From contig OZ244042.1 of the NCBI GenBank assembly GCA_965215015.1, positions 4,032,001-4,096,000 on the forward strand: 64,000 nucleotides of DNA, given 5' to 3'. The stretch comes from Candidatus Poribacteria bacterium (GTDB taxonomy: Bacteria > Poribacteria > WGA-4E > PCPOR2b). The stretch's first letter is position 1; each line of letters starts with the position of its first letter. Position numbers and translations under genes: made by a program. A model generated the notes under the pieces. That model saw only the letters and a program-made list of their open reading frames with translations. It searched no databases and had not been told where the DNA came from. Below are positions 24,985 to 43,609 of this stretch, in pieces.

Positions 24985-26235
24985 ATGTCAACTAAAAATA
25001 ACAAAGCCGAACCCCAAGCCCATCACCACGATGATTTACACACCCGTCTAGCCTTCCTGAAGTTCAGTCAACAGGACGAAGAGCATCTCAAAGCCCTCTC
25101 AGAAGTTTTTGCTCCCTACATTCCCGATATCGTGCGTAGTTTCTATCAACATCTACAAAAGTTTGAAGAAACCGCTTCGCTGCTGACCGACGAATTGATT
25201 ACAACGCGGTTACTCGATGCACAACAACACTATCTTGAGAGATTGACGGAAGGAAATTATGATCAACAGTATGCAGCGGAACGCTCCCAAATCGGATATG
25301 CCCACAATCGTGTTGGACTTGCACCGAGGTGGTATATTGGGACGTACAATTTGTATATCCATCTCCTTATCCCGTTGATATGTCAGGCGTACTGCGATGA
25401 ACCAGAGCGGGCTCAGAATGCTATCCTCGCCCTGACGAAGGTGCTGATGCTGGATATGCAACTAGCAATCGAAACGTATATCGAACGGCAGGAGTTGGAA
25501 GCAGAGATTATTCAATCCGAGAGATTCGCTGCAATCGGGCAACTGGCAGCCCGCGTCGCCCACGAGCTTCGCAACCCGCTATCTTCGGTGGAGCTGAATT
25601 TGGATTTGCTCGCCGATGAAGTCGCCGATGGTCCAGAGATGGATGTCGCAGAAGCGAAGGATTTGCTTAAATCTATTCACAATGAAGTCGAACGGTTGGC
25701 TAACATTGTCTCAGAATATCTAGTGTTTGCAAGATTGCCCCGTTTTGAATTTGAGCGTGAATCGCTCAATACTGTCATACAGACCTTTTGTAACTTTATT
25801 GAACCACAGCTGCAGCAAGCCCAAATCACCTTTGCGATAGAACTCGCTGAGAACTTGCCTTTTACCTTACTGGATGCCGAACAGATTCAATGTGTCTTGC
25901 ATAACTTGCTCAAAAACGCCATCGAAGCCATGTCTTCAGGTGGCGAATTTTCAATCCGCACTAGCGTTGAATCCTCTTGGATTGTGCTGCGAATTTCCGA
26001 CACCGGCGTGGGCATCCCGCTGCCGGATCAGAGACGAATCTTTGCTCCCTTTTTCACTACCAAGAAAGGGGGGACCGGTTTGGGACTTTCGCTTGCCGGG
26101 GAAATCATCAAGCATCATCAAGGGACAATTCTTTGTAAGAGTGTTGTTGGTCAGGGAACACAGTTTACTATCACGTTTCCAATACGGGACGAGGAACCGA
26201 GCGAAAGTGGAATAATGGAACAAGCCGCCACCTAG
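24985..26235 (+). CDS. Globin-coupled (protoglobin-domain) sensor histidine kinase
   Basis: Sensor globin motifs (RLAFLKF, SFYQHL, IGYAHNRVGLAPRWYIGTY with proximal His); H-box AHELRNPL; N box NLLKNA; DTGVGI, FFTTK and GTGLGL; no transmembrane helix. Confidence 0.92.
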   Translation: MSTKNNKAEPQAHHHDDLHTRLAFLKFSQQDEEHLKALSEVFAPYIPDIVRSFYQHLQKFEETASLLTDELITTRLLDAQQHYLERLTEGNYDQQYAAERSQIGYAHNRVGLAPRWYIGTYNLYIHLLIPLICQAYCDEPERAQNAILALTKVLMLDMQLAIETYIERQELEAEIIQSERFAAIGQLAARVAHELRNPLSSVELNLDLLADEVADGPEMDVAEAKDLLKSIHNEVERLANIVSEYLVFARLPRFEFERESLNTVIQTFCNFIEPQLQQAQITFAIELAENLPFTLLDAEQIQCVLHNLLKNAIEAMSSGGEFSIRTSVESSWIVLRISDTGVGIPLPDQRRIFAPFFTTKKGGTGLGLSLAGEIIKHHQGTILCKSVVGQGTQFTITFPIRDEEPSESGIMEQAAT

Positions 26236-26273
26236 ATCACCAAAATACATCACATGCTGGAGGGGCGATAATC

Positions 26274-27638
26274 ATGAATGAAGATAAATTAGTTCTAGTG
26301 GTCGATGATGATGCGCCTATTCGAGACTCCCTTGAAAAGATTTTAAAACGAGATGGCTACGCTATCCAAACTGCCGCGGATGGCGAATCCGCTCTAGAAG
26401 TGATTCGTCACCAACCGGTCAATCTGATTCTTGCCGATTTGAGAATGCCCAACATGGATGGATTACGATTACTCAAAGCTGCCAAAATACTTTCCCCTGA
26501 AATCGAGGTCATTCTCATGACGGCCTACGGTGAAGTGGATACAGCTGTTGAAGCGATGCAAGCAGGGGCGTATCACTTTATCCAAAAACCGTTGAAGCGT
26601 TCTGAAATTCTGCTCACCATCGCCCGCGCCCTTGAAAAACAGATGTTGGCTATCGAAGTCAAATCTTTACGCGAACAGATGGGGGCCGAACATTCTTTGG
26701 GCAACATCATCGGAAAAAGTCCCGCCATGCGTCAATTGATTACGAAAACGCAGCAGGTTGCGTCAAGCACTGCGACTATCCTAATCACCGGTGAAAGTGG
26801 GACCGGCAAAGAGGTGTTTGCCAACGCAATCCACGCTTTAAGCCCAAGAACGAATAAACCGATGATTAAAATCAATTGCGGCGCGTTCCCGGACACCCTG
26901 TTGGAGTCTGAGCTTTTTGGGTATGAAAAAGGGGCATTCACAGACGCCAAATCGAGTAAGCCTGGACGTTTTGAACTTGCGGATGAGGGAACGCTCTTTT
27001 TAGACGAAATTGGTGAAATGCCTAAACCGCTGCAGGTTAAGTTGTTACGGGTTCTACAAGATGGTAAATTCGAGCGACTTGGTGGAACGAAGCCTCTCTG
27101 CGTGGACGTGCGCTTAATCGCCGCCACAAATAAAAATTTAACGATGGCAGTCGAAGCTGGCAATTTTCGGGATGACCTGTTTTATCGGCTCAATGTGATT
27201 ACCCTCGACCTTCCCCCGCTACGCGCTCGAAGAGAGGATATTCCACTGTTTGTAGACTGTTTCCTAAAAAAATATAGTGAAAAGGCGGGGAAACCGATTC
27301 GGGGCATTTCTCGTCAAGCGTTGGAAGCACTTGAAGCCTATTATTGGCCGGGCAATATCCGTGAATTGGAAAACGCGATTGAACAAGCGGTGGTGTTGAC
27401 ACAATCCAATACCATCGAACGGATGAATCTTCCAGCATCGATTCACCAGGGGAGCAAGGACTCGACTTATCCCCACGACCCGAAGTCGATTGTTGTTCCC
27501 TTGGGTACACCTATGGAAGAAATCGAGCAGAAAGTGATAACTGGGGTGCTTTCGATGACTTCTGGAGACAAGGAATTGACTGCGAAGTTACTTGGACTCT
27601 CGGCACGAACCATCTATCGCAAGTTGGAAAAGGGTTAG
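26274..27638 (+). CDS. Sigma54-dependent NtrC/Fis-family response regulator (bEBP)
   Basis: REC domain (VVDDD, DLRMP); GESGTGKE, ESELFG.EKGAFTDA, FLDEIGE and WPGNIREL; C-terminal HTH (LLGLSARTIYRKL). Confidence 0.95.
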   Translation: MNEDKLVLVVDDDAPIRDSLEKILKRDGYAIQTAADGESALEVIRHQPVNLILADLRMPNMDGLRLLKAAKILSPEIEVILMTAYGEVDTAVEAMQAGAYHFIQKPLKRSEILLTIARALEKQMLAIEVKSLREQMGAEHSLGNIIGKSPAMRQLITKTQQVASSTATILITGESGTGKEVFANAIHALSPRTNKPMIKINCGAFPDTLLESELFGYEKGAFTDAKSSKPGRFELADEGTLFLDEIGEMPKPLQVKLLRVLQDGKFERLGGTKPLCVDVRLIAATNKNLTMAVEAGNFRDDLFYRLNVITLDLPPLRARREDIPLFVDCFLKKYSEKAGKPIRGISRQALEALEAYYWPGNIRELENAIEQAVVLTQSNTIERMNLPASIHQGSKDSTYPHDPKSIVVPLGTPMEEIEQKVITGVLSMTSGDKELTAKLLGLSARTIYRKLEKG

Positions 27639-27682
27639 AGGTACTAGTACGATAAGGATAATCCCCCGAAGGAGGAAACACG

Positions 27683-28444
27683 ATGATTCAAAACGTTCTC
27701 GTCGCGATTGGCGACACCCCCCACGAAAAAAATGCCTTTGAATATGCCGGGCATTTAGCTGTCCTGTTAGACGCCCACCTTTCGTGCGTCCACTTTGCCG
27801 ATGAAACACATCACGGTCAGGAAGACATTGCCGCCAGAATTTTCGACAACATAGACTCGGCACTCGCTGAGTTCGAGTTTTTATCCGCACACGTTGATAC
27901 CATCACTGGCAATCCTGTAAGAAACCTCTGTGAAAAGGCACATACTGCCGATCTCGTCGTGGTCGGTATCCCTGAATCAATTAAGAGGCAGGGATTGCGA
28001 TTGATCCACGACAGGATTGACGATATTTTGTCCCACATTACAAAGCCGACGATTGTTGTCCATGAGCAATGTACAATTCTGAAGAAAATCTTAACAGTCC
28101 ATCACGGCGATGCGGCATCCGACCACGTCCTTGAATTGGCAGCGGAATTGGCAAAGCGAACCAAGGCAAGCTTACTCAATTTGGCACTGGCGAATACACA
28201 GATAAGGGCCGCTGAGATTTCTGGACAGATGCGTGAGTATTTGCAATACCACAACGTGGAAACAGAGTTCAGAGCACAGGTAGGTTTCACCGTAACCAAC
28301 ATTCTGGAAACAGCATCGAAAGAGGACTGTGACCTAATCGCGCTGAGTGCAAATTATCATGGGCGGTTGTATGAGCTGATTTTTCAGGACACGACGGAGA
28401 TGGTTGTGAAACTCGCGGATCGAGCGGTACTTGTCACTCGGTAG
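27683..28444 (+). CDS. Universal stress protein (tandem USP domains)
   Basis: MIQNVLVAI, ADLVVVG, KKILTV, CDLIAL and AVLVTR motifs. Confidence 0.8.
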   Translation: MIQNVLVAIGDTPHEKNAFEYAGHLAVLLDAHLSCVHFADETHHGQEDIAARIFDNIDSALAEFEFLSAHVDTITGNPVRNLCEKAHTADLVVVGIPESIKRQGLRLIHDRIDDILSHITKPTIVVHEQCTILKKILTVHHGDAASDHVLELAAELAKRTKASLLNLALANTQIRAAEISGQMREYLQYHNVETEFRAQVGFTVTNILETASKEDCDLIALSANYHGRLYELIFQDTTEMVVKLADRAVLVTR

Positions 28445-28655
28445 TGTATCGATGTTACGGTTTTGGCGGTGCTCGTTGCTTTTCCCTTCATCCCCGCACC
28501 GTTCAAAGACCGAGAGTGAAACGTGAAGCGTAACACGTGAAAGCAATTGGTTCACGGGGGCATCAACGAATCCATGAGCACTTGGCGGATAAGATCAAAG
28601 CCAACCTGAAGGACGACCTCTTGGAAATTCACTTGTCGCAGAAGGGTGAGGTGAT

Positions 28656-29900
28656 ATGATGGGGCTCGGGCTATTTGAACCGCTAGCGATTGCGCTCGGC
28701 GTGGGGTTGTTAGTTGGCATGCAGCGGGAGAGGAAGACGTCTTCTATTGCGGGCATCCGCACCTTTCCACTTATCACCATACTGGGCTCGCTTTCGGCCC
28801 TACTTGCGGACGCGTTCAACGGTTGGGTTCTCGCGGCGGGGTTTCTCGCTGTGAGCACGATGCTGTTGGTTGGCGATCTAGAACAATTTGGCAAGGGAGA
28901 GATTAATCTTGGCCTGACGACGGAGATGGCGGGGTTAGTCATGTTCGGCGTTGGGGCTGCGCTCATTAAAGGCTACACGGCTCCAGCGATTGCGGTCAGC
29001 GGCGTGGTGGTGGTGCTACTACACTGGAAGCAGCCTCTCCAGAACTTCGTCAACAAGATTAGTGAGAGCGATTTCAAGGCAATTATCCAGCTGGTGCTGA
29101 TTGGGCTAGTCGTCCTGCCCGTGCTGCCGAACCAGACATATGGCTGGTACAACGTTCTCAACCCCTACAAGATTTGGTTGATGGTAGTTCTGATTTCGGG
29201 TATCAGTCTGATTGCCTATGTCGCATACAAACTTCTGGGGGCTCGGGTCGGTGCGATTCTCGGTGGTGCGCTGGGTGGGTTTATCTCTAGTACTGCGACG
29301 ACCGTCAGCTTTTCACGACAAACCAAGACACATTCTGATGCCGCGCCGATGGCCTCCCTGGTTATCCTGATTGCGTCTACGACTGTATTTGGACGTATCC
29401 TGTTGGAAATTGGCATCGTCGCTCCCGAATTTTTGCCAAGTGCCGCCGCCCCGCTTGGAATTGTAATGGGACTAATGGCGATACTCTGCGTCATCTGCTT
29501 TCTGCGAGTAGGGGGAAATAGTATAGACAATCCGACACACAACAACCCAGCGCAATTGAAAGTGGCAATAATCTTTGGGGGCTTATACGCGGTCATTCTC
29601 CTCGCTGTTGCCGCAGCCAAAGTGCACTTCGGCACTGGGGGTATGTATCTCGTGGCGATGCTGTCGGGCCTGACTGACATGGACGCGATTACGCTTTCAA
29701 CCGCAGAATTGGTGAAGACAGGGCGCGTCACCACTGACACCGGTTGGCGGGTGATTCTCCTAGCGGCACTATCTAATCTGGTGTTTAAAGGGGGGGCGGT
29801 CGCCGTGCTTGGCAGCCGCAGCCTTCTGATTTCTATTTCAATTCTATTTTCCATAGCACTGACCGGCGGCGGATTGTTGTTGGCATTTTGGCCGTATTGA
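28656..29900 (+). CDS. MgtC/SapB family membrane protein with DUF4010 domain
   Basis: GLLVGMQRE..AGIRTF, GLTTE, NPYKIWLMVVLI, GGFISSTATT and GLTDMDA motifs. Confidence 0.9.
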   Translation: MMGLGLFEPLAIALGVGLLVGMQRERKTSSIAGIRTFPLITILGSLSALLADAFNGWVLAAGFLAVSTMLLVGDLEQFGKGEINLGLTTEMAGLVMFGVGAALIKGYTAPAIAVSGVVVVLLHWKQPLQNFVNKISESDFKAIIQLVLIGLVVLPVLPNQTYGWYNVLNPYKIWLMVVLISGISLIAYVAYKLLGARVGAILGGALGGFISSTATTVSFSRQTKTHSDAAPMASLVILIASTTVFGRILLEIGIVAPEFLPSAAAPLGIVMGLMAILCVICFLRVGGNSIDNPTHNNPAQLKVAIIFGGLYAVILLAVAAAKVHFGTGGMYLVAMLSGLTDMDAITLSTAELVKTGRVTTDTGWRVILLAALSNLVFKGGAVAVLGSRSLLISISILFSIALTGGGLLLAFWPY

Positions 29901-30180
29901 GAGAGGCACTTTGTCTCGTAGGGAGAAACAACCCGTTAGGCAGGCAAAACTCTTACCACGCTTGAGTAAAGAAACCAGGGCCATGTGAAAAGAAAGTGCA
30001 AAAGGCGAGGCGCGTGAAAGGTGAAAACAGTTGGCTCATGGGTGCGGTCGGGCTTGGAAGCCCGACCTACGGGGCTCAGAAAAAAAGAAAATGCAAAGCC
30101 TGCAGAGAAACTGTAGAGGCAGGTTGCCCCGCCCCTCCTTGCCAAAAACTCGGTTGCTGTTGCACGATTTCTTAATATGA

Positions 30181-30524
30181 TAGGACTTACGCAGTTGAAC
30201 GTTCAAACCCGCGTATTTCGGTGTCTCATCAAATACTGAGTGTGTCCCTCGACAGTTCACGACGCCCGATGAATCGGGCAACTCCAGTTCAGCCGACAGG
30301 AGTCGGCCCGCTCCGCGTGCCATCCCCTTGCTTGCGGGAGGAAGCCCCCCCTAACCCCCCCGCAAGCGGAGGGGAAAGAACGCAGGCGAGGGGGATAGAG
30401 GGGGGACACCCCACCACCGGGTATTTAGCGGGGGGAAGGGGGGACGGCATACGATGGCGTATACCTACTCCCTTAAAGACGCTGGTTGAATTGCGCGGCT
30501 ACAAACTCAAGTGTGTAACTCCTA
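30181..30524. mobile_element. MITE-like element, family A (opposite orientation to 24494)
   Basis: Starts TAGGACTTACGCAGTTGAAC and ends ACAAACTCAAGTGTGTAACTCCTA. Confidence 0.65.
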
Positions 30525-30654
30525 ACATGCGCCAGAAGCAAAAAGCCTATACTCTTGGGACGATAAAATGAACAGATGAACAAATGACGCAATATGCAAT
30601 ACGTCACACATATTACGCATGAGGTGCTCTCGCGGTAACTGGAGAAGATTACAC

Positions 30655-33198
30655 ATGACACAAGTAACCCGAACTGAATTATCCCCAGATCAGCTCCGTT
30701 TCACATGCGACGAGGCGCAATTCGACTTCGCGTCCACGGCGGAGGTGCTGTCGCTCCCCGAAAGAATGGTAGGACAAGATAGGGCGCTCCGGGCGGTCAA
30801 CTTCGGCGTGTCGATGCCCAATGAAGGGTACAATATTTATGCCATGGGCCCGCCGGGGGCTGGGAAAATGTCATCTATTACCGAATTTCTGTACAGACGT
30901 GCCCGTGAGATGCCACGCCCCGACGATTGGTGCTATGTCATGAATTTTGCCAATCCGGATCGGCCGCACTATCTCAAGCTGCCTTCGGGAGAGGGAGCAG
31001 CGTTCCAAAAGGATATGGAAGGCCTGATTGAGGAATTGCGTCAGGACATCCCCCGCGCCTTGGAAAGCGAGGATTACGAGAACGAGCGAAATCGCATTAT
31101 GCAGGAGGTTCAGCGCAAACAGAATGCCCAATTTTCCCAATTAGACCAAACTGCCCAAGAACAAGGCTTTGTGATCCAAAGGGGGCAGTTCGGCGTGTTC
31201 TTCGTGCCGCTCGTTGATGGCGAGCCAGCAACCGCCCCGGAGCAGTTGACCCAGTTATCTCTCGAACAACGTCATGAGATGGAAAGGCGGGGTGAACAAC
31301 TGCAAACCGAATTGAACCAAACCATGCGAGCGGTGCAGACCATCGTCAAGGAGGGACGAAGCCAACTGGCAGAACTGGAACGGAACATTGTAATGTCTGC
31401 CATTGGTCCCCATATTGAAGAATTAAAAGAAAAATACGCCGCCCGTGTGCCCGTTGTCAGCTATCTGAACGATATGCAGCGGGACATCATCGATCACGGC
31501 AACGCATTTCACGCCAGCAAGGAAGGCGAGCAACAGGCCCCCACCCCCTCTGGGATATTGCAATCCGAAATCTCATTTGACCGCTACAAAGTGAATCTAA
31601 TCGTTGACCATTCCCAGACGGAAGGTGCACCCGTTAAAATCCTAAACAACCCGACGTATCAGAACCTGATTGGACAGGTGGAACGACAGGCACAATTTGG
31701 GGCGTTGATTACCGATTTCACACTGATCAAAGCGGGGGCGTTGCACCGAGCGAATGGTGGCTATCTAGTGGTGGAAGCCTCCCATCTGCTGCGACAGCCG
31801 TTTGCTTATGAAGTATTGAAACGCGCCTTGCACGCCCGGGCGATTCACATCACCGAACTCGGACAGGAGTATAGCCTGATGAGCACGGTTTCCATTGAAC
31901 CGGAGGCAATACCTTTAGATGTCAAGGTGGTGATAATTGGTAACCCGATGTACTATTATCTGTTGCAGGCGTATGACGAGGAATTCGGCGAGCTTTTTAA
32001 GGTGCAGGCGGACTTCGACAGTGTCATGGATCGCACGCCAGAAAACATTGCGAGCTACGTGCAATTTCTCAAAGCAAGATGTGACGATGAAGGTCTGAAG
32101 CATTTTGCGCCTTCGGGTGTGGCGCGGTTGGTCGAGTACAGTGTTGAATTAACCGGCGATCAGGAGAAGTTGAGCACGCAGTTTGCCGAGATTTGTGACC
32201 TTGCCCGCGAAGCCAGCTTTTACGCGGGACAGAACGGGCATTCAGAGGTGCCCCGCGATGCGGTGCAACAGGCTATTACCGAGAAAATCTATCGGTCAAA
32301 CCGTATTGAACAACGCCTCGCTGAAATGATTGAAAAGGGACACATCTTCATTTCAACTGAGGGCGAGGTAGTCGGTCAGGTCAATGGCCTCTCTGTCCTC
32401 GGCCTGGGGAATTATTCCTTCGGTAAGCCATCCCGTATCACAGCTCGAACCTACATGGGCAGCGGTGGGGTAGTTAGCATCGAACGGGAGGTGCGAACTT
32501 CAGGCCCGATTCATAACAAGGGTGTCATGACGTTGACCGGCTACATCAACGGGAAGTACGGTCAGGATCAACCGATTTCGATGTCTGCCCAACTCAGTTT
32601 TGAGCAGTTGTATGAAGGTGTTGAAGGTGATAGCGCGTCATCAACAGAACTGTACGCGCTCTTGTCATCGCTTTCCGGTTTTCCAATCAAGCAAGGGTTC
32701 GCCGTCACCGGATCCGTGAATCAACACGGCGAGATCCAGCCTATCGGCGGTGCGACGGAGAAGATTACCGGCTTTTATGAAGTTTGCAAAACCTTCGGAT
32801 TCACCAGCGACCAGGGCGTGTTGATTCCGCGGACTAATATAAAAAATCTGATGCTCAAAGCAGAGATTGTTGAAGCGGTGCGCGCAGGGAAATTCCATAT
32901 CTATCCGGTCGAAACCATTGATGTGGGCATCGAAATCCTAACAGGGGTACCGGCAGGGGCACGCGATGAAGATGGTAATTACCCAGCAGGTACGGTCAAT
33001 TGGGCGGTAGAAAAACGCTTAAACCAATTCGCCGCAGGGTGGAAGGCGTTCCAGTCGGATAAGGAGACAGCGGCGGAGAAATCCGACAATGAGGAAGAAG
33101 AAACCAATATACCTGAACCACCCAAAGAAGATGCCGGCATTCTCAGGAAGGTGTTTTCTTGGTGGGGCCGCGAGAAGGGAGACACCCGATGCGAATAA
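30655..33198 (+). CDS. Lon-like protease (LonC/AAA_32 type)
   Basis: GQDRA, GPPGAGK, DWCYVMNF, GALHRANGGYL, GQVNGL, catalytic EGDSAS, TGSVNQ.GEIQPIGG.TEKI motifs. Confidence 0.93.
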   Translation: MTQVTRTELSPDQLRFTCDEAQFDFASTAEVLSLPERMVGQDRALRAVNFGVSMPNEGYNIYAMGPPGAGKMSSITEFLYRRAREMPRPDDWCYVMNFANPDRPHYLKLPSGEGAAFQKDMEGLIEELRQDIPRALESEDYENERNRIMQEVQRKQNAQFSQLDQTAQEQGFVIQRGQFGVFFVPLVDGEPATAPEQLTQLSLEQRHEMERRGEQLQTELNQTMRAVQTIVKEGRSQLAELERNIVMSAIGPHIEELKEKYAARVPVVSYLNDMQRDIIDHGNAFHASKEGEQQAPTPSGILQSEISFDRYKVNLIVDHSQTEGAPVKILNNPTYQNLIGQVERQAQFGALITDFTLIKAGALHRANGGYLVVEASHLLRQPFAYEVLKRALHARAIHITELGQEYSLMSTVSIEPEAIPLDVKVVIIGNPMYYYLLQAYDEEFGELFKVQADFDSVMDRTPENIASYVQFLKARCDDEGLKHFAPSGVARLVEYSVELTGDQEKLSTQFAEICDLAREASFYAGQNGHSEVPRDAVQQAITEKIYRSNRIEQRLAEMIEKGHIFISTEGEVVGQVNGLSVLGLGNYSFGKPSRITARTYMGSGGVVSIEREVRTSGPIHNKGVMTLTGYINGKYGQDQPISMSAQLSFEQLYEGVEGDSASSTELYALLSSLSGFPIKQGFAVTGSVNQHGEIQPIGGATEKITGFYEVCKTFGFTSDQGVLIPRTNIKNLMLKAEIVEAVRAGKFHIYPVETIDVGIEILTGVPAGARDEDGNYPAGTVNWAVEKRLNQFAAGWKAFQSDKETAAEKSDNEEEETNIPEPPKEDAGILRKVFSWWGREKGDTRCE

Positions 33199-33602
33199 AG
33201 TTGTGGGACCCGTTGCAGGAATTGGCTGAATTTGAGCGGACCGTCGACCGGCTGTTGGGCCGAGGTCGCCACCGGATGAGTTACGGCTATCCGCCGATTG
33301 ATCTCATGGATACCGGAGCCGCATTTGTGCTGTCGGCGCGCCTGCCCGGCGTCTCGACAGACCAGATTCGCCTCTCGGTTTCCGGCACGACGGTCACACT
33401 TGAGGGACAGCGTGAGCCGATGGTCATGGAAGGCGCAACCCCGATTTTGCGTGAACGCCTCTACGGGCAGTTTCGCAAAAGCATTGACTTACCCGAACCG
33501 GTACACGAGGAAGAAGTCAAGGCACAATACACCGATGGCATCTTGCAGGTGACGCTACCCAAAGGCCGTCAGCTTCAGCCGAAAACCATCCCAATCCAGT
33601 AA
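33189..33602 (+). CDS. Hsp20/alpha-crystallin small heat-shock protein
   Basis: PPIDL, LPGV, RERLYGQFRKSIDLP and AQYTDGILQVTLPK motifs. Confidence 0.9.
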   Translation: MRIKLWDPLQELAEFERTVDRLLGRGRHRMSYGYPPIDLMDTGAAFVLSARLPGVSTDQIRLSVSGTTVTLEGQREPMVMEGATPILRERLYGQFRKSIDLPEPVHEEEVKAQYTDGILQVTLPKGRQLQPKTIPIQ

Positions 33603-33630
33603 TACTAAATACGTACAAGGAGAACTAAAG

Positions 33631-33999
33631 ATGCTGACTTTCAATCTCTCGAGGGAACCGGCGCGACAGTCCCTGACACCGTTTGTTGATATTTACGAGC
33701 TGCCCAACCGCGTGGTCGTGCTAGCGGATATGCCTGGCGTTTCCAAAGCAGGTGTGGATATTCGGGTGATTGATAACCGCCTGATGATTCGTGGGCAATG
33801 CCCTATGAGAAGGGATGGGGTTTGCCTAATTGGGGAATGCGCCCACTACGACTATTATCGCTCCATAAAACTGTCCGCCGCCATTGATGCCGAAAACATA
33901 CAGGCGGAGATGAAGGATGGCGTCCTCACATCGATCTTACCCAAACGGCGGTTGGGCAGGTCGGTCGAGGCGTCAATTTCCATTGAGGACGAGCTTTAA
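33631..33999 (+). CDS. Hsp20/alpha-crystallin small heat-shock protein
   Basis: PFVDIYE, ADMPGV and IQAEMKDGVLT.ILPK motifs. Confidence 0.88.
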   Translation: MLTFNLSREPARQSLTPFVDIYELPNRVVVLADMPGVSKAGVDIRVIDNRLMIRGQCPMRRDGVCLIGECAHYDYYRSIKLSAAIDAENIQAEMKDGVLTSILPKRRLGRSVEASISIEDEL

Positions 34000-34635: not shown

Positions 34636-34651
34636 AGCAAAAGTGATGCCA
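34636..34651 (-). promoter_or_regulatory. Sigma54 (-24/-12) promoter of the CBS gene
   Basis: Minus strand reads TGGCATCACTTTTGCT, an exact GG-N10-GC, ~70 bp upstream of the ATG. Confidence 0.75.
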
Positions 34652-34864: not shown

Positions 34865-34868
34865 CTGA

Positions 34869-35512: not shown

Positions 35513-35610
35513 TTTTGACAAAATGTCAATCTGATTTTGGAAAAATCGAGGGTTTTTGACAAAATGTCAGATGAAAATGTGGATATATTGCTATTTTTGA
35601 CAAAATGTCA
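35513..35610. promoter_or_regulatory. Three identical sites TTTTGACAAAATGTCA with palindromic core; putative enhancer (UAS) for the sigma54 activator
   Basis: Exact 16-mers at 35513, 35554 and 35595 (41-bp period), about 135-230 bp upstream of a sigma54 promoter. Confidence 0.75.
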
Positions 35611-35745: not shown

Positions 35746-35761
35746 TGGCATAGTGATTGCA
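35746..35761 (+). promoter_or_regulatory. Sigma54 (-24/-12) promoter of the nos operon
   Basis: TGGCATAGTGATTGCA, an exact GG-N10-GC. Confidence 0.8.
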
Positions 35762-36010: not shown

Positions 36011-38005
36011 ATGCAACACACAATTCAGCGACACCCGCTTTCAATGCTAGGACTTGCAATACTTGGCGTGATTCTATACTTGGGCAGCTCCCAGTCTTTA
36101 CATGCACAGCTTCCCGCCGATGCGATGCGCATCGCGCAGGAACGTAGTTTAACCCCTGATGACATCAAAGCTGCCTTGGCAACCTATACTCCCACCGGCA
36201 GGCATGATGAGTATGTGATGTTTTCTTCGGGGGGGCATAGTGGGCAGGTCATTGTTGTTGGTTTGCCCTCAATGCGTATCCTGAAGGTCATTGCGGTCTT
36301 TACGCCTGATCCGTGGCAGGGGTACGGTTACGGAGTGAAGGATTCGCCCTTAGACACTTCAAGCGAGGGGGTGACTGTCGATGGACAATCCCTGACTTGG
36401 GCGGATACCCACCATCCCGCATTAAGTGAAACTCAGGGTGATTACGACGGTGAGTACCTGTTCATCAACGACAAAGCCAATGGCCGGATTGCGGTCATTG
36501 ATTTGAAGGATTTTGAAACAAAACAGATTATCAAGAACCCAATCTTCCTCAACGATCACGGTGCAACAATGGTAACCCCGGATACTGAGTATGTGGTGGA
36601 AGGCTCACAGTACGCCATGCCGCTAGGTAATGAATATGCTCCCATTGCCAACTACAAAGAAAAGTATCGAGGGTTGATGACCTTCTGGAAATTTGACCGT
36701 AGCAAAGGGCGTGTTGTCAAAGATGAGTCGTTTGGAGTTGAACTTCCACCTTACTGGCAAGACCTCGCAGATGCTGGAAAGTTGACGAGCGATGGTTGGG
36801 TCTTCTGCGGTTCGTTTAACTCTGAGTTAGCAACCGGGGGCATCGAAAATGGAAATCCTCCCTTTGAGGCAGGCACAGCTGAACGGGATATGGATTATCT
36901 GCATCTCATCAATTGGCGCAAAGCCGAGGCGGCCTTTAAGGCAAGTAAGGTCAAGAAAATTAAGGGCTTCCCGGTGATTACAATAGAGACTGCCGTTGCT
37001 GAAGGTATTCTTTATCTGACGCCTGAACCCAAGAGCCCACACGGTGTTGATGTTAGCCCCAGTGGAAACTACATTATTGTTTCGGGCAAGCTGGATCCGC
37101 ACGTCACAGTATATCACATTGATAAAATTAAGAAGGCCATTACCGACAAAGATTATGAAGGTATAGATGAGTACGGTATACCAATCTTACGATTTGATGC
37201 AGTCAAGGAAGCGCAGATAGAGGTTGGATTGGGCCCCCTTCATACCCAATTCGATAATAAGGGGTATGCCTACACCAGTCTGTTTCTTGACAGTGCGGTT
37301 GCACGATGGACATTGGGTCCAGATGCGAAATATAAAGCTCCGGAGCGTCCATGGAGACTTATCCAGCAGCTGCCCGTCCATTACAACATAGGACATCTCG
37401 TGGCTGCAGAGGGTGACACGGTTGACCCGGATGGAAAGTATCTCGTTTCTCTTAACAAATGGGCGGTAGACCGTTTCCTGAATGTGGGACCGCTACTTCC
37501 ACAGAACCTTCAATTGGTTGATATATCCCAAGAGGGCGATGGCATGGGCTTGCTCTATGACATGCCACTGGGCATTGGTGAACCTCACTATGCACAAATT
37601 ATCAAAGCGGATAAGCTGAAGGCATGGGAGGTTTATCCTGAAGTTGGCTGGGATACTATCAAGCAACAGAAGCATCCGAAAGCATCGCTCAAAGGTTCAA
37701 TTCAGCGGAATGGAGACACAGTGGAAGTCTTCATGACCGCTATTCGTAGTCACTATGAACCTGAGATTGTAGAGGTCAACAAAGGCGATCGCGTGATATT
37801 GAATCTCACCAATCTTGAACGAACCTACGATGCGACGCACGGCTTCGCCCTACCCGGCTATAATATCACCTCAAGTATTGAGGCTGGTGAGACCGTCACG
37901 CTCGATTTTGTTGCCAATAAGGAGGGCGTCTTTTCCTTTTACTGTACCGAGTTCTGCTCAGCACTCCATCTGGAAATGGCAGGATATTTCCTTGTCAAAC
38001 CGTGA
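36011..38005 (+). CDS. nosZ: Nitrous-oxide reductase, clade II (Sec-dependent)
   Basis: FSSGGHSGQ, DTHHP, INDKAN.RIA, KSPHGVDV, LGPLHTQF, HYNIGH and EPHY motifs; CuA site THGF...CTEFCSALHLEM; signal peptide lacks twin arginines. Confidence 0.97.
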   Translation: MQHTIQRHPLSMLGLAILGVILYLGSSQSLHAQLPADAMRIAQERSLTPDDIKAALATYTPTGRHDEYVMFSSGGHSGQVIVVGLPSMRILKVIAVFTPDPWQGYGYGVKDSPLDTSSEGVTVDGQSLTWADTHHPALSETQGDYDGEYLFINDKANGRIAVIDLKDFETKQIIKNPIFLNDHGATMVTPDTEYVVEGSQYAMPLGNEYAPIANYKEKYRGLMTFWKFDRSKGRVVKDESFGVELPPYWQDLADAGKLTSDGWVFCGSFNSELATGGIENGNPPFEAGTAERDMDYLHLINWRKAEAAFKASKVKKIKGFPVITIETAVAEGILYLTPEPKSPHGVDVSPSGNYIIVSGKLDPHVTVYHIDKIKKAITDKDYEGIDEYGIPILRFDAVKEAQIEVGLGPLHTQFDNKGYAYTSLFLDSAVARWTLGPDAKYKAPERPWRLIQQLPVHYNIGHLVAAEGDTVDPDGKYLVSLNKWAVDRFLNVGPLLPQNLQLVDISQEGDGMGLLYDMPLGIGEPHYAQIIKADKLKAWEVYPEVGWDTIKQQKHPKASLKGSIQRNGDTVEVFMTAIRSHYEPEIVEVNKGDRVILNLTNLERTYDATHGFALPGYNITSSIEAGETVTLDFVANKEGVFSFYCTEFCSALHLEMAGYFLVKP

Positions 38006-38069
38006 GAACGAACCGTGAAGTATGTAATCATGCTTCACGGTTCACATTTCATGTATAGGGGAAGTGATT

Positions 38070-41000
38070 ATGCTTCTAAGAGTTGAACGCCCCCGGCGCG
38101 AGTGGTTGGTAAGTGCGTTGCTAATTGTCGCAGGTATCCTGCTGCTCGTTTCGTTGCTTTTTCCCTACTGGCGCGTAGATCTTGAAGCGGGCATTTATCC
38201 GAAAGGATTAACGCTCCAACTTCGTCCCTACCGTCTTGAGGGAGATATCACAGAAATCGATGAACTGAACCATTATATCGGGATGCGAGCGCTAGAGTCC
38301 GCGGGAAAACTGGAGCGAACGATTGCTATTCCCTTAATCATCACTGCGGGCTTATGCCTGCTAATTGCGGGCTTGGTTCCCCGGAAATGGTCAATGTGGC
38401 TGACACTCCCCGGCTTAGTGTTCCCGGTTGTTTTTTTAGGTGAATTGTATTGGTGGTTGGCAGATAGTGGTCTACATCTTGATCCAAAGGCACCACTCAA
38501 CCAATCAATAAAACCGTTCATCCCACCTATTTTTGGGGAGGGACGAATCGCACAGTTCAACGCAAATGCTTCCTTTCAGATTGGATTTTACCTTGCGCTG
38601 CTTGGGGCGGTATTATCAAGGGCGGCATTCTATCTGAAAAAGCCAGAATGGTTAGCAAAAGGATTAATAATTGATGCATCAGTGCTGTTAGTTATTTCGC
38701 TGCTTTTCCCTTACTGGCGCGTAGATTTTGAGTCGCGAAAATTTCCGAAAGGCGCTATACTTCAGATTCGACCGAACCGTATAGAAGGAAATATCCGAGA
38801 AGTGGACAAGCTGAATCGCGATATTGGAATGCGGGATATTGAATCGGCGGGACAATTTGAACGGAAGATTGCCATTCCATCTATTGTAGTTGTGGCATTA
38901 TGTTTGTTGAGTTCAGTCTTTGTGCCGCGAAAATGGTCATCTTGGTTGGCGTTACCCGCCCTAATTTTCCCAATCGTTTTTGTTGGCGCGCTCTATGGGT
39001 GGCTGCGCGACAGTGGACTCAATCTTGATCCCGAAGTCGCGCTCTACCCGGACATCGAACCCTTCATCCCTCCAGTCGTCGGCACGAAAACAGTCAAATC
39101 GGTCACCACGACCTCGACATTTCAGATTGGGTTTTACTTCACCATTTTGACCGCTCTGCTATCTATCTTTGCACTTCTACTCAAAAGAAGATACCGAGTC
39201 TTTCATCCCAAGCAAACGATGATAGGAATTGCTTTGGCCATATCTCTACTTTTAGCCCCTTCAGCTTCCATCGCTGCAACTCTTACAATTGACGCAAGCT
39301 CCAGCATTAGCGACACGATAAAACGTGCTGCACATGGCGATACAATTATTGTGAAAGGTGGGGTTTATAATGAGCGATTCGCCCTCAATAAATCCGTAAC
39401 CCTCCGCGGAGAAGATGGAGCAGTCATTGACGGAGGGGGAGTTGGTAGTGTCATTACAGTCAGTGCACCAGCCACGGTTGTCCGTGGATTCACAATTCGG
39501 AATACCGGCGACCGGCTCTCTGAAGGTGATGCCGGGATTATGATTAAAAAAGCGAAGGGCGTAATTATTGAAGGAAACCGAGTTGAGGATGCTTTATTCG
39601 GGGTTCAAGTGCGAAATGCCCCGGATAGCATCGTCCGAAATAATACCTTCTACGGTAAGGACCTGGATGTAGGACGTCGGGGCGATCTGATTCGTGTCTG
39701 GTATAGCAGTGGTGCGGTGGTCGAAGATAACCGTGTCTTTGATGGTCGTGATGTCGTCATCTGGTATTCAAAAGGCGTCACAGTTCGTAGGAATGAGGTT
39801 CGCAACGGACGTTACGGCATTCACTTCATGTATTGCGACGATGCGACGATTGAAGATAATCGTCTGATCGGCAACTCGGTTGGGGTTTATTTAATGTATA
39901 GTTACCGTTTGCAGCTCCAGAAAAACTGGGTGATAACCAATCGTGGTGCTAGTGGCTACGGGATTGGGCAGAAGGATATGTACGACGGGCTTATCGCTGA
40001 CAATTTCGTTGCAGACAATCGGGCGGGAATGTTCATGGACAATTCGACGAACACTTTTCGCAATAACCTAATCGCTTTTAATGATTTTGGAATGCTTGCA
40101 CTCCCGTCCGCTCGGAAGAACACTTTTGCTGGGAATAGTTTTGTTGACAACGGCGAACAGGTGACTATTGAGGGGCAGGGACGGCTTGGCACCAACCAAT
40201 GGATTGGCAATTACTGGAGTGATTACAACGGTTACGATGCAAATGGGGATGGAGTCGGGGACATGCCCTATCGGTCAGTACATCTTTTTGAGAAGCTAAC
40301 CGAGCAGTATCGCGCGTTACGAATTTTCACCTATAGCCCATCAGTGCAGGCACTTGATTTTGCCTCCCGGCTCTTTCCTGTTTTTATGCCTCAACCGAAG
40401 CTGGTGGATGACAGTCCGCGTATGCGTCCCGTGATGCCCAATCTCAAAGCACCGAAAGGGAAGCTATCATCGGCATGGCTGTTGGGGGCTTCGGCGTTAT
40501 TTCTTTCGGCTCTATCCATCGCCGGTCACTTGAACAGATGGTTACAGCCTCTTGTGGATCGCTTCCTATACCTTACCAGGCCTCAAGACTCAAAACACAA
40601 AGCACCATGTGAATCGTATAACACGCGACTAGTTCCGACTATATCCGTCGATCATTTGACTAAACGTTTTGGTAAAGCGACTGCGGTAGAACGATTGAGT
40701 TTCGATATATCCCCCGGAGAAACGGTAGCGTTGTGGGGTCCAAACGGTGCCGGTAAAACAACTGCCTTGCGTTGTGTGTTGGGAGTATTGCCTTTCGATG
40801 GAACGATTACAGTTGGTGGCAATTCGTCGCGTACCGAAGGCAAAATGGTTCGCCAACAGATTGGTTACGTTCCACAGGAGGTCCGTCTCCACAGCGACTT
40901 GACAGTGCAGGGAACAGTTTCATTTTATGCCCGCCTGCGAAATGTTTCTAGAGATCGGTTGACAACCTTGATGGCTGAGTGGAATTTAGCAGGGATTGCG

Positions 41001-41507
41001 GATAAACGGGTTGGAAATCTTTCCGGTGGCATGAAGCAACGTTTGGCGTTGGCGATCGCGCTGCTTTCAGATCCACCGATTCTGTTGCTAGACGAACCGA
41101 CGAGTAACCTAGATGTTCATACCCGCCATGAGTTCTGGGCAGCACTCGAAAATCTCAAGAAATCAGGTAAGACCTTAATCTTCTGTACCCATAGACTTGA
41201 TGAAATTTTCAGACTGGCGGACCGTGTTATTGTCATGGAGGAAGGAAAGAAGATTGCCGAGGGTCCTCCGATGCGCCTTGACGGTCATCTTTCACGAGAT
41301 GTGGTGCTGCACCTGTCAATCCCCGAATCGTTCCATAAGATAGCAGCGAACCTGCTTGAGCAGCAGGGTTTTTCCACAAAATGTAACGGTGTGAAAATCT
41401 CAGTGCAAGCACCACATGACAGAAAAGCTGAACCGTTCCGCGTATTGGCGGAATCTGCCATCCCCATCGACGATTTTGAATTAGCCGACACCCCAGATAA
41501 GGAGTAA
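38070..41507 (+). CDS. Fusion protein NosB-like x2 + NosD (beta-helix) + NosF (ABC ATPase)
   Basis: One uninterrupted ORF: two LFPYWRV..PKG..LN(HY/RD)IGM..PFIPP units; NosD motifs (GRYGIHFMY, NYWSDY.GYD.NGDGVGD.PY); a TM helix; Walker A GPNGAGKTT, LSGGMKQ, LLLDEPT and H-loop CTH. Confidence 0.9.
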   Translation: MLLRVERPRREWLVSALLIVAGILLLVSLLFPYWRVDLEAGIYPKGLTLQLRPYRLEGDITEIDELNHYIGMRALESAGKLERTIAIPLIITAGLCLLIAGLVPRKWSMWLTLPGLVFPVVFLGELYWWLADSGLHLDPKAPLNQSIKPFIPPIFGEGRIAQFNANASFQIGFYLALLGAVLSRAAFYLKKPEWLAKGLIIDASVLLVISLLFPYWRVDFESRKFPKGAILQIRPNRIEGNIREVDKLNRDIGMRDIESAGQFERKIAIPSIVVVALCLLSSVFVPRKWSSWLALPALIFPIVFVGALYGWLRDSGLNLDPEVALYPDIEPFIPPVVGTKTVKSVTTTSTFQIGFYFTILTALLSIFALLLKRRYRVFHPKQTMIGIALAISLLLAPSASIAATLTIDASSSISDTIKRAAHGDTIIVKGGVYNERFALNKSVTLRGEDGAVIDGGGVGSVITVSAPATVVRGFTIRNTGDRLSEGDAGIMIKKAKGVIIEGNRVEDALFGVQVRNAPDSIVRNNTFYGKDLDVGRRGDLIRVWYSSGAVVEDNRVFDGRDVVIWYSKGVTVRRNEVRNGRYGIHFMYCDDATIEDNRLIGNSVGVYLMYSYRLQLQKNWVITNRGASGYGIGQKDMYDGLIADNFVADNRAGMFMDNSTNTFRNNLIAFNDFGMLALPSARKNTFAGNSFVDNGEQVTIEGQGRLGTNQWIGNYWSDYNGYDANGDGVGDMPYRSVHLFEKLTEQYRALRIFTYSPSVQALDFASRLFPVFMPQPKLVDDSPRMRPVMPNLKAPKGKLSSAWLLGASALFLSALSIAGHLNRWLQPLVDRFLYLTRPQDSKHKAPCESYNTRLVPTISVDHLTKRFGKATAVERLSFDISPGETVALWGPNGAGKTTALRCVLGVLPFDGTITVGGNSSRTEGKMVRQQIGYVPQEVRLHSDLTVQGTVSFYARLRNVSRDRLTTLMAEWNLAGIADKRVGNLSGGMKQRLALAIALLSDPPILLLDEPTSNLDVHTRHEFWAALENLKKSGKTLIFCTHRLDEIFRLADRVIVMEEGKKIAEGPPMRLDGHLSRDVVLHLSIPESFHKIAANLLEQQGFSTKCNGVKISVQAPHDRKAEPFRVLAESAIPIDDFELADTPDKE

Positions 41508-41510
41508 GCC

Positions 41511-42347
41511 ACGACCACTGCAATTTCTAACATCTTTGTTATAATGGGCAAAGAGATACAAGATTCTCGGCGCAACCGATGGTTTCTACTGTTTGCGGTT
41601 GTTTTTACCGGACTAGCACTCGGATTAAGTACGCTCGGATTTTCGGGGCTAGGGACTTTCGGCGTAGCAGGCTTTGGGCGCACTGTTGCCAGCCTCATCA
41701 ATCTTGTTGTACTGATTGCGCCACTGATGGGTTTACTGCTCGGTGCCATCAGTATATCGGGTGAACGGGAACGGGGAAGTTTACTTCCGATTCTAGCGCA
41801 GCCTGTGACGCCAACGGAAGTATTGCTCGGAAAGTTTTTCGGAACAGCATCCGCACTCACTGCAGCAATCCTTTTCGGATTCGGACTGAGCGGATTTGTG
41901 ATTGCGTGGCGAGGCGGCTTCGCCCAACTGGATGACTACCTGATGCTGGTGGGGTTGACCTTGCTGCTCGGTCTTGTCCATCTCAGCATTGGCTTCTGTT
42001 TATCTGTTCTCACATCAAAAAGCGCGACAACATTGAGCCTTGCCCTAATCCTATGGTTGTCAATTGTGTTTCTGAGTGATCTCGGGCTCATTGGGACAGC
42101 AATTGTGTTAAAATTATCTCCGGAAATATTGCTCGCAGCGGTGCTGCTAAATCCGGTACAGGTTTTCAAATTGGCGGCGATTCAGATGATACAGGGGAAC
42201 TTAGAATTACTCGGCACTGCAGGACGCTACGCTGCGGATGTGCTAGGGGATTTCTTGCTGCCGGTACTGATGACATTCCTTATTTTCTGGATGCTTATCC
42301 CACTCGGAATTGCAATTTACATCTTTCCACGAAGGGGTGCACAATGA
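41511..42347 (+). CDS. nosY: ABC transporter permease NosY
   Basis: KEIQDSRRNRW, ISGERERGSL..ILAQPV..EVLLGKF and LLNPVQVFK motifs; six hydrophobic segments. Start uncertain: ACG 41511 behind the RBS, or ATG 41544. Confidence 0.88.
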   Translation, partial: TTTAISNIFVIMGKEIQDSRRNRWFLLFAVVFTGLALGLSTLGFSGLGTFGVAGFGRTVASLINLVVLIAPLMGLLLGAISISGERERGSLLPILAQPVTPTEVLLGKFFGTASALTAAILFGFGLSGFVIAWRGGFAQLDDYLMLVGLTLLLGLVHLSIGFCLSVLTSKSATTLSLALILWLSIVFLSDLGLIGTAIVLKLSPEILLAAVLLNPVQVFKLAAIQMIQGNLELLGTAGRYAADVLGDFLLPVLMTFLIFWMLIPLGIAIYIFPRRGAQ

Positions 42348-42817
42348 AATTGATGAAGATGGAAGGTAGGGAAACACCCGTTACTGGTTTCGTATCTATT
42401 CTACTTATCATCGGATTAATCATGACCGGATGCGGGTTTCAAGATAACGGTGCCCCCCGCATCCGATACGGTGAAGAAACCTGCGATCGATGCCGCATGA
42501 TTATCAGTGAAAAGCGGTTCGCCGCTGCATATCGAACCGAATCCGGTGTATTGCGAAAGTTCGACGATTTGGGTTGTGCAGTGCTCCACCCTAAAGAACA
42601 AAGGGAAACGGTAACGCAATTTTGGGGATATGACTACGAAGAAACCGATTGGTTAGAGGTAAAACAAGCGTTTTTGGTACATAGTTCAGAGCTATTGACC
42701 CCGATGGGGTATGGAATTGTTGCCCTTACAACCGCTGAAAAAGCCACAACACTAGCAAAAAAGGTAAATGGTCAGATAGTGCAGTTTGACCAGCTTTATC
42801 CAATTTTACAACCGTAA
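42344..42817 (+). CDS. nosL: Copper chaperone lipoprotein NosL
   Basis: Lipobox MTGC; CDRCRMII; KFDDLGC; TPMGYG. Confidence 0.9.
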   Translation: MKLMKMEGRETPVTGFVSILLIIGLIMTGCGFQDNGAPRIRYGEETCDRCRMIISEKRFAAAYRTESGVLRKFDDLGCAVLHPKEQRETVTQFWGYDYEETDWLEVKQAFLVHSSELLTPMGYGIVALTTAEKATTLAKKVNGQIVQFDQLYPILQP

Positions 42818-42832
42818 ATGAGAGGAGAATGA

Positions 42833-43609
42833 ATGATGTTACTCAAACGAACCGTATACATCGGATTGGTACTAACCTCGGTTTTATGTACTGTAGCTGT
42901 TGTCCAGTTGGGTTGGACGACGGAACAGGAAAAAGTTGACCCTTCCATATCGCAAACCGAAGCAACACCGGATACCGCTACCATCATTGGCACGGTGAAA
43001 TTTGAAGGGGAGGCACCTTTCCGGCGTGCAATTAATTTCGGTGCCAATTTGGACTGCAAACGGCTACACGATGGCAAAGTTTATTACGAGGATGTTATCA
43101 TCAATCAGAATGAGACCCTCAAGGATACGCTTGTTTATGTCAGAGGGAAACCGAAAGGTGACTACAAGCCATCGAGTAAACCTTTTGTAGTCGATCAGAT
43201 AGGTTGTATATTTATCCCACACGTTGCGGCGGTAATGGTCGGTCAACCGATGGAGTTCCTCAATAGCGATCCGGCACTTCATAATATCCGAACTGAATCC
43301 AAGAAGCAGACTCCGTTTAACATTTCCCAGCCGAATAAAGGTATGAAATACACGCACCAATTTGAGGCAGCCGAAATTGGCATTCCGCTCCGGTGCGATG
43401 TGCATCACTGGATGGTCGCTTACGCTCATGTCCTATCTCACCCATTCTTTGCCGTTACCGGCGAGAAAGGCACTTTCAAGATTCAAGGGCTGGTGCCTCG
43501 TACTTACAACATCGAGGCATGGCATAGTAAGCTGGGCAAACAGGTACAGAAAATTAAGTTGGAGGCAGGAGAAACCAAGAGGGTGGATTTTGTATTTACT
43601 AGCGAGTGA
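42833..43609 (+). CDS. Exported cupredoxin-like / carboxypeptidase-regulatory-like domain protein
   Basis: DQIGCIFIPHV, NSDPALHNI, CDVHHWM, HPFFAVT..GTFKI and YNIEAWH motifs. Confidence 0.75.
   Translation: MMLLKRTVYIGLVLTSVLCTVAVVQLGWTTEQEKVDPSISQTEATPDTATIIGTVKFEGEAPFRRAINFGANLDCKRLHDGKVYYEDVIINQNETLKDTLVYVRGKPKGDYKPSSKPFVVDQIGCIFIPHVAAVMVGQPMEFLNSDPALHNIRTESKKQTPFNISQPNKGMKYTHQFEAAEIGIPLRCDVHHWMVAYAHVLSHPFFAVTGEKGTFKIQGLVPRTYNIEAWHSKLGKQVQKIKLEAGETKRVDFVFTSE

Follow-up and report, generated by a model that had tools for sequence, protein, structure and literature searches.

The 64-kb stretch of DNA analysed here (64,000 nucleotides, hereafter the window) belongs to the 5.94-Mb genome of a Candidatus Poribacteria bacterium, referred to as G000, and positions are those of the window unless they carry a prefix. 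Annotation of the open reading frames (ORFs) between 23000 and 46000 with Pfam and NCBIfam placed the genes for a globin-coupled histidine kinase and an NtrC-family sigma-54 activator upstream of a nos cluster for nitrous-oxide reduction. The kinase, the activator, a three-site enhancer, a sigma-54 promoter and the nos operon very probably form one circuit. The features concerned are the following.

24985..26235, + strand: globin-coupled histidine kinase, 416 aa, with Protoglobin, HisKA and HATPase_c domains
26274..27638, + strand: NtrC-family sigma-54 activator, 454 aa, with Response_reg, Sigma54_activat, AAA_lid_14 and HTH_8 domains
35516..35610: three-site enhancer, palindromes TGACAAAATGTCA at 35516, 35557 and 35598 (TGACA-N3-TGTCA in 41-bp steps)
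35746..35761, + strand: nosZ sigma-54 promoter TGGCATAGTGATTGCA, with GG at 35747-8, GC at 35759-60 and a predicted start at ~35772
36011..38005, + strand: nosZ, Sec-dependent (clade II) nitrous-oxide reductase (TIGR04246)
38064..41507, + strand: fused maturation gene, 1147 aa, with two membrane repeats, NosD and an ABC ATPase (NosF-like)
41544..42817, + strand: nosY (ABC-2 permease) and nosL
42833..43609, + strand: gene for a 258-aa secreted protein, the last of the cluster, with a cupredoxin-like H...C-x2-H-x2-M motif

Residues 15-169 of the kinase matched Protoglobin (PF11563; 138.9 bits, 1.9e-40), and the protein also matched HisKA (PF00512) and HATPase_c (PF02518), with the H-box AHELRNPL. 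The protein appears to be soluble, no membrane segment being evident by eye. Its globin domain matched the solved sensor globins HemAT (1or4; E = 3.8e-14), AfGcHK (5ohe; E = 7.6e-11) and GsGCS, and Tyr54 and His107 aligned without gaps with residues 70 and 123 of HemAT 1or4 and with residues 45 and 99 of AfGcHK 5ohe, positions that we take to be the distal Tyr and proximal His heme ligands. Judged by its sequence, the protein is a globin-coupled histidine kinase of the AfGcHK/NmpU type, for which heme binding and ligand-dependent autophosphorylation are predicted.

The activator gene follows after a gap of 38 bp. Its product combines a receiver domain (PF00072), a sigma-54 activator domain (PF00158; 8.7e-73, 244 bits) and a C-terminal helix-turn-helix (HTH; PF02954), with Asp55 lying within LADLRMP, the Walker A motif GESGTGKE and the loop GAFTDA, one change from the GAFTGA consensus. 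An earlier interpretation made from the letters alone (the sequence-only reading) had described a soluble globin-HisKA-HATPase kinase directly 5' of such a REC-AAA+(GAFTDA)-HTH activator, and the domain matches and the loop confirmed it. The best NCBIfam models for the activator were AtoC/NtrC/ZraR, all below their cut-offs, and those for the kinase AtoS/ZraS; the classes of the two proteins thus correspond (AtoS/ZraS with AtoC/ZraR), and the genes were adjacent in eight of eight genomes. About 20 sigma-54 activators are encoded in G000, together with an rpoN-type DNA-binding domain (PF04552, 201 bits, 2521280-2521753 of the genome), and the HTH tail of the activator studied here was unlike those of the other 19, with no more than 19 identical positions.

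NosZ scored 844.7 bits with the Sec-type model TIGR04246 (cut-off 625) and 405.6 bits with the Tat-type model TIGR04244, and no twin-arginine motif was seen by eye at its N-terminus. Because the Sec-type model was above its cut-off and matched better than the Tat-type model, NosZ is assigned to clade II, as the sequence-only reading had done. One correction concerns the genes of the cluster: nosZ is followed by one fused gene of 1147 aa, then by nosY, nosL and the 258-aa gene. In the fused protein residues 1-415 are membrane modules with no Pfam match, TIGR04247 (NosD) covers 416-788, and a NosF-like ATPase occupies residues ~850-1139 (ABC_tran on 876-1014); the NosD/ABC fusion is kept at 85-89% identity in the same-genus loci. 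The 258-aa protein matched the blue-copper protein 5fc9 weakly (E = 0.12), and homologues at 41-62% identity lie ~5-8 kb 3' of nosZ in loci of Planctomycetota, Omnitrophota and other Poribacteria. One possible role for the protein is that of electron donor to NosZ; the nos cluster showed no nosC/G/H-type genes. In G000 there was no nirS match, and the nirK model found only a multicopper match below its cut-off. For this reason the source organism looks like a non-denitrifying N2O reducer, that is, one without a nitrite reductase of its own.

The 13-bp pattern TGACA-N3-TGTCA occurred exactly three times in the window, each time as TGACAAAATGTCA, where 0.06 occurrences were expected and three were reached in 0 of 100 shuffles. 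The first site lies 7.9 kb past the end of the activator gene, and 136 bp past the third lies an exact TGGCA-N6-TTGCA promoter, at 35746. The motif scans therefore bear out the exact -24/-12 promoter and the three identical upstream sites of the sequence-only reading. Among the sequencing runs on record, four from one study, none is listed as RNA. On the + strand a scan found no sigma-70-like site between 35423 and nosZ. No TTGAT-N4-ATCAA box was present in 35094-36011 with up to two mismatches, and the window total of 47 for this motif is at chance level (42.6 expected). The earlier statement that no FNR/DNR box precedes nosZ holds; the FNR independence drawn from it goes as far as that one absence carries it. 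TGGCA-N6-TTGC had only two exact matches in the window, at 35746 (+) and at 34651 (-). The latter was missing from the list of the sequence-only reading and belongs to a gene divergent from nosZ:

34108..34566, - strand: CBS-pair protein gene (CBS domain twice)
34637..34651, - strand: CBS-gene sigma-54 promoter TGGCATCACTTTTGC, an exact match ~70 nt before the CBS gene

An exact match to this promoter was found at the same place in 10 of the 11 loci that hold the CBS gene.

Sixty related genomes, 19 of the same genus and 41 from outside it, were searched for kinase and nosZ orthologues; with G000 the genus set comprised 20 genomes. Full-length kinase orthologues (79-88% identity) were found in seven of the 19 other genus genomes. 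The activator orthologue was full-length in those seven and in G000 (8 of 20) and truncated in G012, and nosZ was present in 7 of the 19 and in 0 of the 41. Kinase, activator and nosZ genes were linked within 4.8-17.8 kb in seven of the 20 genomes (G000, G005, G006, G007, G008, G009 and G015), which is seven of the eight that bear the kinase-activator pair. The synteny search that had been proposed with the sequence-only reading thus found the three genes together in these seven genomes.

An alignment of eight same-genus genomes from the CBS promoter to the nosZ start had a mean column identity of 54%. The three sites and the nosZ promoter make up 55 positions of it, of which 43 were invariant (30 of 39 in the sites and 13 of 16 in the promoter), against 58 of 519 elsewhere, as counted by hand. 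The strict tandem pattern was present in 9 of the 20 genus genomes (0 with the reversed pattern as a control). Apart from a second locus in G000, described below, every instance lay in the island formed by these genes or in its remains, and none was found in the nine genus genomes that lack the whole island.

The same architecture recurs before the operon of the activator itself. In G007, G018 and G012, an exact sigma-54 promoter, with a site triplet in 40-43 bp steps in front of it, precedes a kinase/activator operon whose first gene is cytidylate-kinase-like (cmk-like). G009 has a site pair only at this place, at 1966868.

Locus L005 (G007): sites at 2769, 2810 and 2851, promoter at 2976
Locus L007 (G018): sites at 3052, 3093 and 3135, promoter at 3414
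Locus L013 (G012): triplet before the cmk-like gene

Since the same triplets and a sigma-54 promoter precede the kinase/activator operon, the motif is tied to this activator, and the simplest reading is that the activator autoregulates its own operon in the relatives. Site triplets also stand before an hsp20-led gene group within the island in G007, G009 and G018, with mgtC downstream in G007 and G009.

We infer binding of the activator to these sites, a partnership between it and the kinase, and a heme ligand as the signal. The ligand would set the activity of the kinase, which would phosphorylate the adjacent activator. Activator dimers, one on each of the three palindromes, which lie in phase at intervals of about four helical turns, would then nucleate the AAA+ hexamer. 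The hexamer would open the sigma-54 promoter at 35746, and the operon would be transcribed from nosZ through the fused nosD/F gene, nosY and nosL to the cupredoxin-like gene. The divergent CBS-gene promoter would probably be served by this enhancer too. To this two-component switch as a whole, from heme-globin kinase through the adjacent activator, three sites and sigma-54 promoter to the nos operon, we assign a probability of roughly 0.62, and that the adjacent activator drives nosZ through the three sites appears reasonably likely. Our preferred form of it, in which the signal is O2 and falling O2 is the cue that turns the operon on, is put forward tentatively, at less than even odds. The circuit would be part of a hypoxia-type stress island (usp, hsp20, Lon-like, MgtC and CBS genes), into whose regulon nos would have been recruited in this genus.

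The single circuit of sensor, activator, enhancer, promoter and nos operon is the part of the sequence-only reading that we retain; its self-containment and its full novelty are not kept. To call the circuit self-contained was to overstate it, since the regulon of the relatives adds the hsp20-led group and the operon of the two-component system (TCS), the CBS gene has a sigma-54 promoter, a second site pair lies ~1.6 Mb away in G000, and in G018 the TCS occurs without nos.

Several observations weigh against the proposed switch. G018 has the kinase-activator pair without nosZ, and G012 has nosZ with a truncated activator (residues 205-453, directly 3' of the cmk-like gene; L013 301-2075) and no kinase, so that the coupling is not obligatory. 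In G005, G015 and G007 each nosZ site has one mismatch, the three sites being kept in 41-42 bp steps. G005, G015 and G008 keep a sigma-54 promoter before the kinase gene with no detectable site there. G000 itself has neither an enhancer site nor an exact sigma-54 promoter left before its kinase gene, and for that reason the argument from autoregulation is drawn from the relatives alone. The weight matrix used for the sites of the relatives, for the 80 nosZ loci and for the genome-wide search described below was built from the strict sites, and its scores on those sites are circular. In addition, with ~20 sigma-54 activators in the genome, another of them may bind the sites.

In that last case the globin pair would control only its own neighbours, and its linkage to nos would be a matter of synteny only. 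The 7.9 kb between activator gene and sites would fit this, as would the second site pair 1.6 Mb away, and G014 and G016 keep sites with no kinase and no orthologous activator. The sites of G014 and G016, however, lie within the remains of a deleted island (a NosL fragment and a DUF5916 fragment, and in G014 a TonB-dependent receptor fragment fused next to usp), and on this evidence we regard them as relics and not as counter-examples. G014 has lost the TCS and nosZ-to-nosL and keeps usp, CBS and three sites (L011 1-11000); G016 retains two sites, a fragment of the CBS gene and the promoter of that gene (L012 2500-4700). The identical triplet architecture before the activator's own operon in four relatives (a pair only in G009), the lack of strict tandem sites in the nine genus genomes without the island, and the lack of any other G000 activator with a similar HTH tail likewise speak against a different activator, which we consider quite improbable.

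The sequence-only reading knew of no description of this wiring. A globin kinase that acts through an NtrC-like activator on a hypoxia regulon has been published, namely NmpRSTU of Myxococcus xanthus. In the passages of PMC11841059 considered here, the globin kinase NmpU controls the NtrC-like NmpR, which under hypoxia activates its own operons and the genes for a CBS protein and a USP, all from sigma-54 promoters. The hybrid kinase NmpS turns the Myxococcus output on in hypoxia, and the Anaeromyxobacter homologue is active with oxygen (same passages). NmpRSTU, as described there, and the system studied here share a soluble protoglobin kinase at the top, an NtrC-like sigma-54 activator as output, dyad-symmetric upstream sites, autoregulation of their own operons (here in the relatives) and a regulon with a CBS protein and a universal stress protein. 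They differ in three respects. NmpRSTU is a four-protein relay with NmpS (hybrid REC-HisKA) and NmpT (double receiver), whereas here none stands between the adjacent genes in eight genomes. NmpR recognises GCGCA-N5-TGCGC, in most cases as a pair of sites with 14-15 bp between them, and the motif here is TGACA-N3-TGTCA, three sites ~41 bp apart. The Nmp targets are cbb3 oxidase, hemN-hemerythrin and pilR, the word 'nitrous' occurring 0 times in PMC11841059, and here the target is nosZ. Our literature search did not find nosZ described under a globin kinase or a sigma-54 activator, although subscription journals and supplements may hold more; PMC6446978, in the portion considered, mentions sigma-54 only as a reference gene for quantitative PCR. 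The novelty lies in the enhancer motif, which is another one, in nosZ as the target and in the direct coupling of kinase and activator as a two-component system; the general scheme is known from NmpRSTU.

AfGcHK of Anaeromyxobacter sp. Fw109-5 (5ohe) has the same architecture of sensor globin, HisKA and HATPase, at low identity to the kinase described here. Its partner is reportedly not an adjacent sigma-54 activator. No output genes of AfGcHK are known, according to the passages of PMC11841059 considered. The arrangement of three tandem sites followed by a sigma-54 promoter before the gene of a nitrogen-oxide enzyme is shared with NorR at norVW or hmp, as described in part of PMC1274295. NorR is a GAF-domain NO sensor and not a response regulator, and binds GT-N7-AC sites, whereas the activator here has a receiver domain and its sites have the opposite half-site order. 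Control by DNR/NnrR/FNR resembles the present case in that the output is nosZ transcription tied to O2 or NO status. It is of the sigma-70 class, with the box CTTGATnnnnATCAAG upstream of nosZ (same part of PMC1274295), and no such box was found here with up to two mismatches. The targets of NorR are NO detoxification genes, whereas here the target is nosZ. A further system, NssABC of Wolinella, is said to act on clade II nos. DosS/DosT-DosR of Mycobacterium consists of heme kinases that switch on a hypoxia regulon in which usp, hsp20 (alpha-crystallin) and CBS-protein genes are abundant, and FixLJ of rhizobia of a heme kinase that switches on micro-oxic respiration genes. DosS/DosT and FixL hold their heme in GAF or PAS domains, not in a globin, and their regulators are of the NarL/FixJ type with sigma-70.

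The sign of the response is a further difficulty for the falling-oxygen form of the circuit: by analogy with the characterised relative, which is active with O2, the kinase here may signal in the presence of O2, and Myxococcus uses an inverter kinase, of which none is adjacent here. The wiring could be as proposed and its logic another, with a kinase active when O2 is bound and nos induced under oxic or micro-oxic conditions, or with NO or CO as the ligand; we consider this somewhat unlikely. The characterised relatives AfGcHK and NmpU are active with O2, and in Myxococcus the signal is inverted by the hybrid kinase NmpS (passages of PMC11841059). In our genomes the kinase gene leads directly to the activator gene in eight of eight cases, the distal Tyr and proximal His are kept as in AfGcHK, and no inverter kinase is adjacent to the pair, the rest of the genome not having been searched for one. 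An oxygen-ON nos operon, in which an O2-active kinase would feed the activator directly with no inverter and provide an oxic or micro-oxic N2O sink in a non-denitrifier, seems unlikely. NO is disfavoured as the ligand by the lack of nirS and of nirK above the cut-off in G000, so that any NO would come from outside. Against the other logic it also counts that organisms generally produce N2O reductase under O2 scarcity, and that heme kinases of both polarities exist, FixL and DosS/T being active in the deoxy form. The co-regulated usp, hsp20 and CBS genes are, moreover, typical of hypoxia regulons, as the considered passages of PMC11841059 indicate.

In a NosZ scan of other genomes that compared 80 nosZ loci, a sigma-54 promoter within ~120 bp together with a triplet was present in only six, whose NosZ was at least 91% identical. 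Four other Candidatus Poribacteria loci (NosZ 83-85% identical) had neither the sites nor the TCS within 10 kb. In three of these four, L024, L077 and L079, the upstream genes were annotated and the nosZ context is a different one, with an FAA hydrolase gene and a D-Ser-dehydratase-like gene, and an APS kinase gene in L077 and L079. Because the 83-85% identical Poribacteria loci lack promoter and enhancer, the nos cluster appears to have joined the heme-sensor island, and gained both elements, within one genus. The globin kinase of G020, a genome of another genus, is 44% identical; there is a cmk-like gene in its vicinity, but no activator gene adjoins it, and the kinase-activator pairing is for this reason not traceable beyond the genus. 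Two loci of Acidobacteriota MAGs (L021 5485-11992; L022 7628-11968) carry a GAF-AAA+ (NorR-like) activator gene divergent from a hemerythrin-nosZ pair, with a sigma-54 match, TGGCAC-N5-TTGCA, ~690 bp before nosZ, another sigma-54 route to a clade II nosZ.

Within the whole 5.94-Mb genome of G000 the strict TGACA-N3-TGTCA pattern had 10 occurrences. Site pairs found with the weight matrix at 39-44 bp lay only before nosZ and at C1 5683192/5683233, and five local shuffles of the genome gave 0 pairs. The second pair has a 41-bp step and lies ~250 bp 5' of an exact sigma-54 promoter at C1 5682943 (-), ~1.6 Mb from nosZ; this promoter leads to a gene for an unknown protein of 172 aa, followed by a pair of PD40 beta-propeller paralogues (L001 6293-9250; G000:C1:5680292-5683249). 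We considered this locus as a conserved member of the regulon and rejected it, because its promoter and site region is not kept in the genus; it is a candidate in a single genome. Partial matches to its gene were confined to G017, G018 and G006, and those to its site part were confined to the sites upstream of the kinase in G012 and G018. Elsewhere in G000, sigma-54 promoters of nearly identical sequence, TGGCATAGGT[CT]TTGCT, form a family, with members at C1 907476, 909875, 917524, 4947540 and 5669362. Some of these resemble part of the PD40 operon promoter, and one group adjoins an activator gene at ~918355.

The remaining genes of the island and its flank in the window are listed here.

21296-23893, + strand: TonB-dependent receptor gene
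27683..28444, + strand: tandem universal stress protein gene (usp), 45 bp past the activator gene
28656..33999, + strand: variable stress-gene block (MgtC/DUF4010, Lon-like protease, two Hsp20 genes)
28656-29900, + strand: MgtC/DUF4010 gene of this block
30619-33198, + strand: Lon-like protease gene of this block
33159-33999, + strand: two Hsp20 genes of this block

The usp gene stands 3' of the activator gene in all eight genomes with the kinase-activator pair and is probably in one operon with kinase and activator. The gene content of the stress block varies between relatives, and no exact sigma-54 promoter or enhancer site was found in 28656..33999 of the window. In every relative the CBS gene is found next to the nosZ control region; in G000 a gap of 1.4 kb separates it from nosZ. 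In G015 and G007 the CBS gene is adjoined by the gene for a 466-469-aa membrane protein (L003 8641-10050; L005 13801-15201), absent from G000, that resembles heme-copper oxidase subunit I weakly, scoring below the cut-off. ORFs of similar size occupy that place in G006, G009, G018, G014 and G016, the correspondence being one of size and position only. Mobile genes were seen within the island in two relatives: an IS605 OrfB/TnpB-like gene between enhancer and CBS gene in G008 (L004 5457-6623) and a DDE transposase gene 3' of the activator gene in G009 (L006 3689-4684).

G000 differs from its relatives in three repeat-bearing stretches.

23894-24984: dispersed repeats before the kinase gene, 1.1 kb, 332 blastn hits in the genome
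34660..35440: dispersed repeats from the CBS promoter to the enhancer, specific to G000, 137 blastn hits in the genome
35830..36000, + strand: repeat in the nosZ leader, 165 bp, specific to G000, 51 hits in the genome (copies or fragments)

The leader repeat is absent from the seven relatives in the alignment. The nosZ leader measures 239 nt in G000 and ~75 nt in the relatives, and the distance from promoter to ATG 265 bp against 95-116 bp, as a result of this insertion. Between the CBS and nosZ promoters there are 1095 bp in G000 and 413-542 bp in the relatives, or ~550 extra bp. Rfam at the gathering threshold gave 0 matches in 24000-44000; the long non-coding stretches are thus not known RNAs, and by blastn they are dispersed repeats. 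Where relatives carry a cmk-like gene and the autoregulatory promoter, G000 has the repeats at 23894-24984 in their stead.

It could be that the circuit is decaying in G000, repeat insertions having left nosZ poorly expressed or uncoupled from the sensor. The 242-nt nosZ leader, with its 165-bp repeat, folds stably (z = -3.9), and the fold includes a hairpin whose GC-containing stem of 8 bp leads into a U-rich stretch. The ~550 extra bp part the CBS promoter from the enhancer, the cmk-like gene, sigma-54 promoter and sites before the kinase gene have been lost to repeats, and the island has been lost repeatedly within the genus. On the other side, every ORF of the stretch that begins with the kinase gene and ends with the 258-aa gene is intact, and neither the three sites nor the nosZ promoter departs from its consensus. 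A sigma-70-like stretch before the kinase gene is, by eye, common to G000, G005, G015 and G008, and a terminator scan of 34400-36100 returned 0, with a loop limit of 8 nt that would miss the leader hairpin. We regard such decay as very unlikely.

Little is known of what controls clade II nosZ in N2O consumers that do not denitrify, and such organisms are candidate greenhouse-gas sinks. The locus described here offers a complete, testable circuit, with a soluble heme sensor, an activator, a 13-bp site in three copies and a sigma-54 promoter, whose parts are small enough for rebuilding in a laboratory host, the organism being of an uncultured Poribacteria lineage. It also points to regulon capture at short evolutionary range, the 83-85% identical nosZ of other Poribacteria being without promoter or sites. 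The polarity of the heme sensor would decide whether N2O reduction is an anoxic or an oxic trait. If the oxygen-ON reading were true, the regulon of a heme sensor would have captured the nos cluster within one genus, by way of the three-site enhancer and the sigma-54 promoter that the cluster acquired.

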